A stretch of DNA of 64,000 nt. Origin: Escherichia coli. Its GTDB lineage: Bacteria > Pseudomonadota > Gammaproteobacteria > Enterobacterales > Enterobacteriaceae. The stretch lies in the NCBI RefSeq assembly GCF_003334305.1, contig NZ_QOWS01000008.1; one strand, given 5' to 3'. The translations under genes and the position numbers were made by a program. The notes beneath the pieces are model-generated. The model ran no database searches. It worked only from the letters and a program-made list of their open reading frames with translations, and was not told the origin of the DNA. Shown one piece after another: positions 60,484-61,089 of this stretch (position 1 is its first letter; every line of letters starts with the position of its first letter).

Positions 60484-61089
60484 TCATTGTAAATAATTGA
60501 ATAACGGCCCCTGAGCTAAAATCGCCAAACTTAAGCACGTTACCCAATCGCCCCACTTCTTCCTCTGGTTTCTATTTTTTCTGCACCAATGGCAATAATA
60601 TCCCCATGCAAAACCAAGCTGTGCACTAATCGGGCCGACAAAATCAGTCCAAGGCTGCGGCCAAAAAGGGGAAAAATTCAGGGGAGGCCAGACAAACGTC
60701 AGAAAGAAATTTCGGATATTTTCCAGCAACGCTGATTTCTCTGGAGAAATATAAAGAATGAAATTCGAGAGAATTAACCAGAAATAGACCGGCGAAAAGA
60801 CCAGCCAGCAATGCAGTCTGTTTTTTAATTCAGGAGGCGTTCTGCGGGAGAATTGCCAACCGATGCCAGCCATTACACTGAAAAAAAGTGCATATTCAAC
60901 CATTAACTCAAGTTGTAATTCCTGAAGAGAAATACGCACAACCAGGAGCGGAAAGGAGAATATTATTTCTGCCAGAAAAGTTAACGTGAATATAAGTACG
61001 GCTAAGACAATAACCGTCGGCCATACCAATAATGGCACGATAACAAAACCGAGAATTACAGGGGGAATATAAAGCCGGAATTTAATCAT
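60484..61089 (-). CDS. island gene D: small polytopic membrane protein, function unknown
   Basis: 201 aa ORF with about 4-5 hydrophobic segments; AT-rich; 2 nt downstream of gene C. Confidence 0.6.
   Translation of the reverse strand: MIKFRLYIPPVILGFVIVPLLVWPTVIVLAVLIFTLTFLAEIIFSFPLLVVRISLQELQLELMVEYALFFSVMAGIGWQFSRRTPPELKNRLHCWLVFSPVYFWLILSNFILYISPEKSALLENIRNFFLTFVWPPLNFSPFWPQPWTDFVGPISAQLGFAWGYYCHWCRKNRNQRKKWGDWVTCLSLAILAQGPLFNYLQ

Follow-up and report, generated by a model that had tools for sequence, protein, structure and literature searches.

Among the ATP-binding cassette (ABC) importers, the membrane protein pair PstA/PstC works with the binding protein PstS, and in GlnPQ and OpuA the substrate-binding domain is fused to the transmembrane domain. 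A similar layout is found in Escherichia coli between glgP and glpD, where a polytopic membrane domain carries a tethered binding domain and a single operon encodes two paralogous membrane domains. Unlike the ABC importers, this locus has no match to the BPD_transp_1 family or its EAA loop, no ATPase gene, and no fold likeness to solved transporters. Here we describe the last gene of the operon in a stretch of 64,000 nucleotides (nt) of the E. coli contig NZ_QOWS01000008.1, referred to below as the window. The four minus-strand genes between glgP and glpD are labelled A, B, C, and D. Gene D (60484..61089, minus strand) is an ATG-to-TGA open reading frame (ORF) of 201 amino acids (aa), annotated in RefSeq as the hypothetical protein WP_000589361.1 in strain H15.

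The nearest described form of the locus is O-island 133 of E. coli O157. It encodes A (502 aa), the PstS-like protein PstS2, and a D-family protein of 200 aa that is 69% identical to D of the window; PstS2 replaces B and C, and its stop codon shares one base with the start of the D-family gene. The genes of O-island 133 have been listed without an assigned function (PMC2907692). Deletion of the whole of O-island 133 was reported to reduce type III secretion in a screen (PMC3378721; repeated in PMC10877973), and the interval from glpD to glgP is a variable genomic region in comparisons of extraintestinal pathogenic E. coli (PMC12928451). Our literature search turned up the O-island 133 screen data and nothing on the D protein or its membrane domain. 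The whole-island deletion is the sole reported phenotype, and none was found in the literature for a D homologue alone.

Homology of D to the membrane domains of A and X

The family databases give D no name. No match was found in Pfam even at E <= 10, including the permease family BPD_transp_1 and its EAA loop, and NCBIfam gave neither a match to D nor a permease family. Pairwise BLASTP of D against A was not significant, and the homology between them is visible at the profile level only. Reading the two proteins by eye, we noticed that D and the N-terminal membrane domain of A carry the same motifs in the same order: F-x-G-x-P, a proline in helix 3, two separate tryptophans, and P-x-(S/C/G)-(A/S)-(Q/H)-x-x-F-x-L-G-Y. 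Alignment of the D family with six A N-termini by hhalign gave a probability of 95.1% (E 3e-8) over 160 colinear columns. In a local rerun the score was 50.6, compared with 14.9 for the reversed alignment, 13.6 +/- 2.7 (maximum 22.2) for 36 column shuffles, and 22.9 +/- 2.9 (maximum 29.9) for 36 shuffles of 20-column blocks. The real score lies above all shuffles, and the homology of D and A is thus not noise from hydrophobic composition.

A second relative was found in protein X (375 aa; AFDB A0A765X7P7), which is encoded at the same locus in E. albertii and some E. coli and is absent from the window. Its N-terminus is a D-like membrane domain; beyond it, unlike D, X continues for ~170 aa more, a stretch that contains another hydrophobic segment and a soluble domain. 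The D profile matched X with a probability of 94% (E 1e-7, hhalign), and the N-terminus of X is 32% identical to A of Pseudocitrobacter (BLASTP E 1e-20). In a joint alignment (A5) of 19 D, X, and A domains, all were colinear and 12 columns were invariant (M1, F15, P19, G77, P100, L105, W134, W147, P153, F160, G163, and Y164). No charged residue is among them, and nothing catalytic-looking is conserved across the three paralogue groups.

These profile comparisons make a solid case that D is a free-standing, colinear paralogue of the membrane domain (~200 aa) of A and X. The A domain (E. coli WP_122985426.1; O157 WP_000982774.1; AFDB A0A8F7YLS9 from Salmonella enterica subsp. salamae) is encoded beside glgP in the same operon, and the two share length, colinearity, and a similar predicted helical bundle. 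D differs in that it evolves faster than the A domain and has no binding domain: it ends ~4 residues after its last helix without fusion to a C-terminal periplasmic domain, and so consists of the membrane domain alone. The membrane domain of D, A, and X is a previously undescribed family, absent from Pfam and NCBIfam and without a match to a solved structure. An earlier note on this DNA, made from its letters only, had allowed that D might be an unrelated membrane component; given the hhalign result and the shuffle controls, that option falls away. The same note had named homology to a known transporter subunit or to a housekeeping membrane protein as grounds for giving up its suggestion that D is a pore or effector. 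Such homology exists in name, the domain being carried by a protein annotated as a PstS family phosphate ABC transporter substrate-binding protein, but the domain is not an ABC permease domain.

The soluble parts of the A and PstS2 proteins are readily identified. Residues 247-482 of A match Pfam PBP_like_2 (E 3.6e-30), A matches TIGR02136 (E 1.3e-35), and the binding domains of A and PstS2 match solved phosphate-binding proteins at about 1e-16. PstS2 of O157 is a lipoprotein of 330 aa, with signal peptide and lipobox, and is 58% identical to the A binding domain. The order A-PstS2-D looks like an unfused counterpart of A. A recent split of A into D and PstS2 was considered and rejected: the binding halves are 58% identical and the membrane halves ~18%, and the two halves therefore have different histories.

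The family is narrowly distributed. A word-indexed search of 5.8 billion proteins returned D homologues in Escherichia only. An exhaustive profile search of 1.84 billion cluster representatives returned one full-length cluster, fragments, and one divergent homologue (P0102); the D profile alone reached neither A nor X in that search. P0102 is 33% identical to D, lacks the last D helix, and is encoded on a 2.5-kb metagenome contig that carries, in this order, the last part of a PstS-like gene, a homologue of C (50% identical), and the D homologue, which overlaps C by 13 nt. When 100,044 species-representative genomes were scanned with two peptide patterns for the A/X membrane domain, matches were found in Escherichia, Pseudocitrobacter, and one Enterobacteriaceae genome only; as just two patterns were used, distant members such as those present in AFDB from Salmonella salamae and Leminorella were missed.

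Predicted structure and topology of D

D is hydrophobic, with a grand average of hydropathy (GRAVY) of +0.62. The AlphaFold model built from D homologues alone was unusable, with a predicted local distance difference test score (pLDDT) of 49.1 and a predicted template modelling score (pTM) of 0.34. Adding the A and X domains raised these values to 74.5 and 0.72. The better model has helices at residues 8-44, 55-83, 91-114, 120-133, 148-171, and 173-200. Foldseek against AFDB50 returned as best matches the membrane-anchored PstS-like proteins and X, with query TM-scores (TMq) of 0.55-0.69, and nothing else convincing. The matches included the Salmonella enterica subsp. salamae protein (507 aa, TMq 0.69, E 3e-4), E. 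coli X (375 aa, TMq 0.63), PstS-family proteins of 474-499 aa, and a Leminorella protein. Searching the PDB gave no meaningful match to the D model and no fold likeness to any solved transporter.

Lysine and arginine are unevenly distributed along the protein, with 12 in the proposed cytoplasmic segments (1-9, 80-94, and 166-182) and three in the periplasmic ones (43-57, 112-150, and the C-terminus). Based on the model and on this charge pattern, we propose that the N-terminus is cytoplasmic, that the chain makes five spans plus a short helix on the periplasmic side, and that the C-terminus is periplasmic; the initial estimate of about four to five helices was thus roughly right. A C-terminus facing outward agrees with A, in which the domain is followed directly by the binding domain that shares 58% identity with PstS2, an exported lipoprotein.

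Proposed role of D

We propose that D may be a non-catalytic inner-membrane subunit of a PstS-like envelope module. Its partners would be the PstS-like proteins of this module, whether membrane-anchored or lipoproteins, with D acting either as a hetero-oligomer partner of A or as a membrane docking partner for the PstS2 lipoprotein, and it would be translated by coupling to whichever gene precedes it. A non-catalytic subunit is the most likely role, as no charged or catalytic-looking residue is conserved across the paralogues. The association of D with PstS-like proteins is physical in this proposal, and we infer for it a part in the binding, sensing, or uptake of a phosphate-like anion.

The start of D is arranged in a way that would suit coupling. 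A Shine-Dalgarno sequence (AGGA, 61098..61101, minus strand) lies 8 nt upstream of the ATG within the last codons of C, and the C stop codon is 2 nt before the D start, which makes translational coupling plausible. The junction is tight in other haplotypes as well: a base is shared with PstS2 in O157 (position 2968), and the genes overlap by 13 nt in locus L006.

Several observations weigh against the proposed role. In UTI89-type strains D is kept (94.5% identity; ratio of nonsynonymous to synonymous substitution rates, dN/dS, 0.31) with A replaced by a fimbrial operon and no PstS-like gene left near D; D is therefore not strictly dependent on A. Conversely, Pseudocitrobacter, Enterobacteriaceae bacterium MGYG-HGUT-00110, and one E. 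coli have A but no D. The genes that precede D in the window are B and C, whose products lack a signal peptide, rather than a gene for a periplasmic protein. D and the A domain are only about 18% identical, and the AFDB matches are partly circular, as sequences of A and X contributed to the D model. Many D copies in public data are truncated or frameshifted, and K-12 lives without D. As D is kept without A and A is found without D, we assign a probability of only about 0.5 to the combined statement that D is an anchor-domain paralogue acting as a non-catalytic subunit of a PstS-like module.

Distribution and selection

D was detected by blastn in 4,147 of 5,426 complete E. coli genomes, in 3,877 of them at a coverage of at least 80%. 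It is always chromosomal in these genomes and normally single-copy. Full-length orthologues occupy the same site in E. albertii, E. marmotae, E. whittamii, and further Escherichia species, with conserved length and N-terminus and strongly conserved motifs. No tblastn match to D was found in 50,697 phage records, and no genuine match in a plasmid collection, where the single match is a 4.8-Mb chromosome filed as a plasmid. A mobile island was considered for the locus and rejected, there being no integrase or tRNA, a fixed position in several genera, and no real plasmid match. The region that the earlier note had called an island contains no mobility genes, and about 71-76% of complete E. coli genomes have D.

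Pairwise dN/dS of D is 0.21-0.41 across Escherichia alleles, at synonymous divergence (dS) of up to about 1. The corresponding values are 0.18-0.20 for the A membrane domain, 0.05-0.15 for the A binding domain, and 0.02-0.04 for glpD. D is a real gene under purifying selection, which is weaker than that on the A domains or glpD. A deep divide separates the alleles into a window type and an O157 type, whose proteins are ~68% identical. Between them dS is 0.81 for D and 0.17 for the adjacent glpD of the same genome pair, so the haplotypes are either much older than the surrounding core or imported. The C-termini of D end in one of two unrelated tails, ...LSLAILAQGPLFNYLQ or ...LSFVTLGMMAWALR (window 60484-60540; L005 2366-2420; L018 7560-7606). 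L018 (7560-7606) combines an O157-like body with a window-type tail, which points to recombination within D.

Decay was considered in the light of these data. D could be functionless or decaying, a duplicated A membrane domain that was left behind and is carried along with the locus, and among the alternatives to the proposed subunit role this one survives best, although we regard it as unlikely. It would account for the K-12-type deletion that runs from within A to D and leaves yzgL, for insertions of the insertion sequences IS1 or IS4 in other strains, for the many truncated or frameshifted copies and one C-D fusion ORF, and for a dN/dS of D above that of either A domain or glpD. That ratio is nevertheless well under 1 at dS of up to about 1, and the full-length frame has been kept in E. 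coli, E. albertii, E. marmotae, E. whittamii, and further Escherichia. The 33%-identical homologue on the metagenome contig is still paired with a C homologue, and the motifs of the family are strongly conserved. Decay is thus contradicted by dN/dS and by the conservation across species, even though truncated copies are common.

Locus architectures between glgP and glpD

A survey of homologue neighborhoods, which the earlier note had called for, placed D as the last gene beside glpD in every architecture that contains it. A is the first gene wherever it is present, and the middle of the locus is cassette-like. The order A-B-C-D was found in the window and H15, A-C-D in L004 and L019, and A-PstS2-D in O157, E. 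marmotae, Escherichia sp. E1V33, and L018. The fullest version is that of E. albertii, with the seven genes A-PstS2-X-B-C'-C-D (L016 991-7600, GCA_027567835.1). UTI89 has a fimbrial operon followed by B-C-D, with no A, and E. whittamii has A, a disrupted C, and D. D is missing from Pseudocitrobacter, where a gene for a 176-aa protein precedes A-B-C, or A-B stands alone. Enterobacteriaceae bacterium MGYG-HGUT-00110 carries A followed by genes for a 186-aa protein and a 143-aa repeat protein, and one E. coli has A only. No ATPase gene was found in any locus architecture surveyed.

In K-12 the only remnant is the pseudogene yzgL, which corresponds to the first ~225 nt of A and thus to the start of its membrane domain (strain CAR, L031 635-1125; window 63872-64000 and beyond). 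K-12-type strains have lost everything from the yzgL part of A to the end of D. Their glpD 3′ flank consists of filler containing repetitive extragenic palindromic (REP) elements, and the glpD stop codon is the exact point at which they cease to resemble island-bearing strains. The locus is also often damaged in single strains (P0001, H21, H51, H7, and L030). Among the lesions, IS1 has inserted into D and into A, an element of the IS4 family has inserted as well, and IS1 has mediated loss of the entire island with the hairpin on the glpD side left in place; in P0001 (E. coli ExPECSC029) an in-frame fusion of C and D forms an ORF of 342 aa.

Gene layout, composition, and transcription signals of the window

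Toward its 3′ end the window is chromosomal E. coli sequence that matches strain H15 with 100% identity and has the gene order malT, rtcBA, rtcR, glpR, glpG, glpE, and glpD, followed by D, C, B, and A on the minus strand. The convergent genes rtcR (end 56779) and glpR (end 56761) overlap by 19 bp at their 3′ ends (56761-56779). glpD (58912-60432, plus strand) converges on D, which is the final gene of four co-directional genes running from glgP to glpD. C (61092..61859, minus strand) encodes a cysteine-containing protein of 255 aa, hypothetical in RefSeq, with no signal peptide and no known family. B (61862..62572, minus strand) encodes a protein of 236 aa, hypothetical in RefSeq and called YbbD family in some records. 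A (62588..64000, minus strand) is cut by the end of the window; the full protein has 502 aa (RefSeq WP_122985426.1), with its start at the window equivalent of 64096. By tblastn, its membrane domain (~205 aa, paralogous to D on the profile comparisons above) is encoded from 63482 onwards and its C-terminal PstS-like binding domain at 62591-63421, both on the minus strand.

The basic description of D in the earlier note, a hydrophobic protein of 201 aa, agrees with the ORF, its length, and the GRAVY value, and its view of D as a small membrane protein that ends an operon fits the layout of the four genes. It had further described D as the most AT-rich sampled part of the island. D does have the lowest G+C of the four genes (41.9%; the others 45.1%, 47.1%, and 48.3%), and its G+C at third codon positions is 0.44, against 0.61-0.65 in glpD, glpG, glpR, and rtcR. 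In 60-nt windows, however, the minimum within D is 30% and that of the island is 25%, at 62549 on the A-B junction. The stretch 62545-62610, spanning the A stop and the B start, is the lowest in G+C of the whole island and is likely a cassette recombination joint.

A G+C-rich hairpin (60440..60462) lies between the convergent glpD and D. The terminator scan showed a 9-bp stem, and folding of the extended structure gave -23.5 kcal/mol (z-score -5.35). This confirms the hairpin reported in the earlier note as a strong one; its distance from the D stop codon (60484-60486) is 21 nt and not the 17 nt given there. The hairpin does lie between both genes, as the note had said in calling it shared with the glpD 3′ end, but a T-rich tail follows the stem on the plus (glpD) side only. 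The structure is terminator-like on the glpD strand, and a terminator role for the D operon is therefore only putative. It is absent from the K-12-type glpD 3′ flank, and is thus a feature of the island haplotype and not of glpD generally. No RNA family was found by Rfam in 60300-64000.

At the other end of the operon, the gap between glgP and A lies just past the 3′ end of the window (L001 9698-9822). It contains a clear intrinsic terminator of glgP, GAACGGGGCC...GGTCCCGTTTTTTT, and after it, upstream of A, a perfect TATAAT with a poor -35 element. From these elements, the A-D operon probably has its own promoter, which is possibly activator-dependent. Reading by eye revealed no Pho box of the CTGTCAT type upstream of A; no formal scan was made.

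Neighboring genes and possible immunity functions

C is the usual upstream neighbor of D, yet the two are separable, as C occurs without D in Pseudocitrobacter (L011). In the C family, Cys30, Cys34, and Cys243 are invariant or nearly so. On a metagenome scaffold from an enterobacterium (L007 8001-9586), two tandem diverged C paralogues of 262 and 261 aa are flanked by genes for an aldo-keto reductase and a protein of the beta-lactamase family, with no A or D nearby; C is therefore an independent, duplicating cassette. Neither C nor X belongs to a family in Pfam or the PDB, and the C-terminal domain of X also lacks an NCBIfam match. Escherichia sp. MOD1-EC7003 (L024 9639-10103) has only a region resembling this domain and lacks the membrane domain.

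B has nine cysteines and no signal peptide. No Pfam match to B was found. Its first ~43 residues weakly match the YbbD equivalog NF007301 of NCBIfam (E 6e-5, 22.6 bits, compared with a cut-off of 373). Outside Escherichia, the slot between glgP and glpD contains two further small secreted proteins of no known family (L006 1686-2114; L023 9551-10609; L011 5205-5735). The first is 176-186 aa long and carries a WGCGGSGCH motif; the second, of 142-143 aa, contains repeats such as S-N-G-E-T-T-F/Y-R-D-E-Y-G-H.

The coming and going of genes between A and D as cassettes raises the question of an immunity function. D could be an orphan immunity protein against a membrane-targeting toxin, such as a pore-forming colicin or an effector of a contact-dependent inhibition, Rhs, or type VI secretion system, with B and C as further immunity cassettes. 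Known immunity proteins against pore-forming colicins are small polytopic inner-membrane proteins. C is found as tandem diverged paralogues both in the E. albertii locus and in the unrelated enterobacterial locus described above, and the D alleles are deeply divergent. B is named YbbD family in RefSeq, and K-12 ybbD lies directly downstream of the rhsD-ylbH cluster (PMC3946193), so that the likeness of B to YbbD is a possible link to Rhs-associated cassettes. That match, however, covers 43 residues at a score far below the cut-off, and O157-type strains have D without B or C. Across all versions of the locus, the family scans recognized nothing toxin-like, but no family could be assigned to B, C, C′, or the C-terminal part of X, among which a novel toxin could still be hidden. 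The homology of D to the anchor domain of a binding protein moreover implies a different, locus-internal origin. We therefore consider an immunity function improbable, somewhat more so than decay.

Other readings of the D/A/X domain

A broader possibility, to which we give about as little credence as to immunity, is that the D/A/X domain represents a new, lineage-restricted class of inner-membrane module that tethers or docks interchangeable periplasmic ligand-binding domains without an ABC ATPase. Such a module might be a device for sensing or taking up phosphate or other anions, or an envelope conflict module. It would include the hypervariable B, C, and X cassettes, and the ancient Escherichia alleles would be held under balancing selection.

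A permease-like role is a little less credible still. D would be a subunit of an unconventional uptake system in which A and D form a channel, comparable to PstA/PstC, fed by the tethered PstS-like domain. The operon does combine two paralogous membrane domains with one or two PstS-like binding domains, which match solved phosphate-binding proteins (E about 1e-16). Neither Pfam nor NCBIfam returned a permease match, however, and no version of the locus has an ATPase gene. Within the membrane helices, the paralogues share no conserved charged or polar residue, a likeness to a transporter fold is missing, and D survives without A in UTI89-type strains.

The searches for conflict systems were negative or insignificant. 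PADLOC gave nothing at E <= 1 for A, B, C, D, X, PstS2, C′, and the 176-aa and 142-aa proteins, and the sole match of D in PHROGs was phrog_5369 (Rz-like spanin), which is non-significant (E 0.52 over 23 residues). The reading of D as a membrane-disrupting effector (a pore, holin-like, or abortive-infection protein) or a small toxin of an island conflict system, which develops the pore or effector named in the earlier note, has no direct support, is very doubtful, and is the least probable. In its favor, D is small and polytopic, is encoded last in its operon, and belongs to a variable, cassette-like locus of low G+C with very high allele divergence (dS 0.81 compared with 0.17 for glpD). Against it, none of the nine locus proteins scanned matched PADLOC, the spanin match is insignificant, and D is absent from phages and plasmids, occupying a single fixed position on the chromosome of about three quarters of E. 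coli and of sister species. No nuclease, ATPase, sensor, or antitoxin-like neighbor was found at the locus, and a homologous domain permanently fused to a solute-binding domain in A is hard to square with a lethal pore.

Significance

Carriers of D make up about three quarters of complete E. coli genomes and include enterohemorrhagic E. coli (EHEC) O157, uropathogenic E. coli, and many commensals. K-12 has deleted the gene, and D has therefore escaped functional study and is annotated only as a hypothetical protein. Its practical weight is limited, as the one reported phenotype is that of the whole-island deletion, and the family is confined to Escherichia and a few neighboring enterobacterial genera. 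The identification of D with the anchor domain provides the first testable context for this protein, with A and PstS2 as candidate partners. If the D/A/X domain did prove to be a new class of module, which we consider improbable, it could explain the type III secretion defect of the O-island 133 deletion in EHEC.

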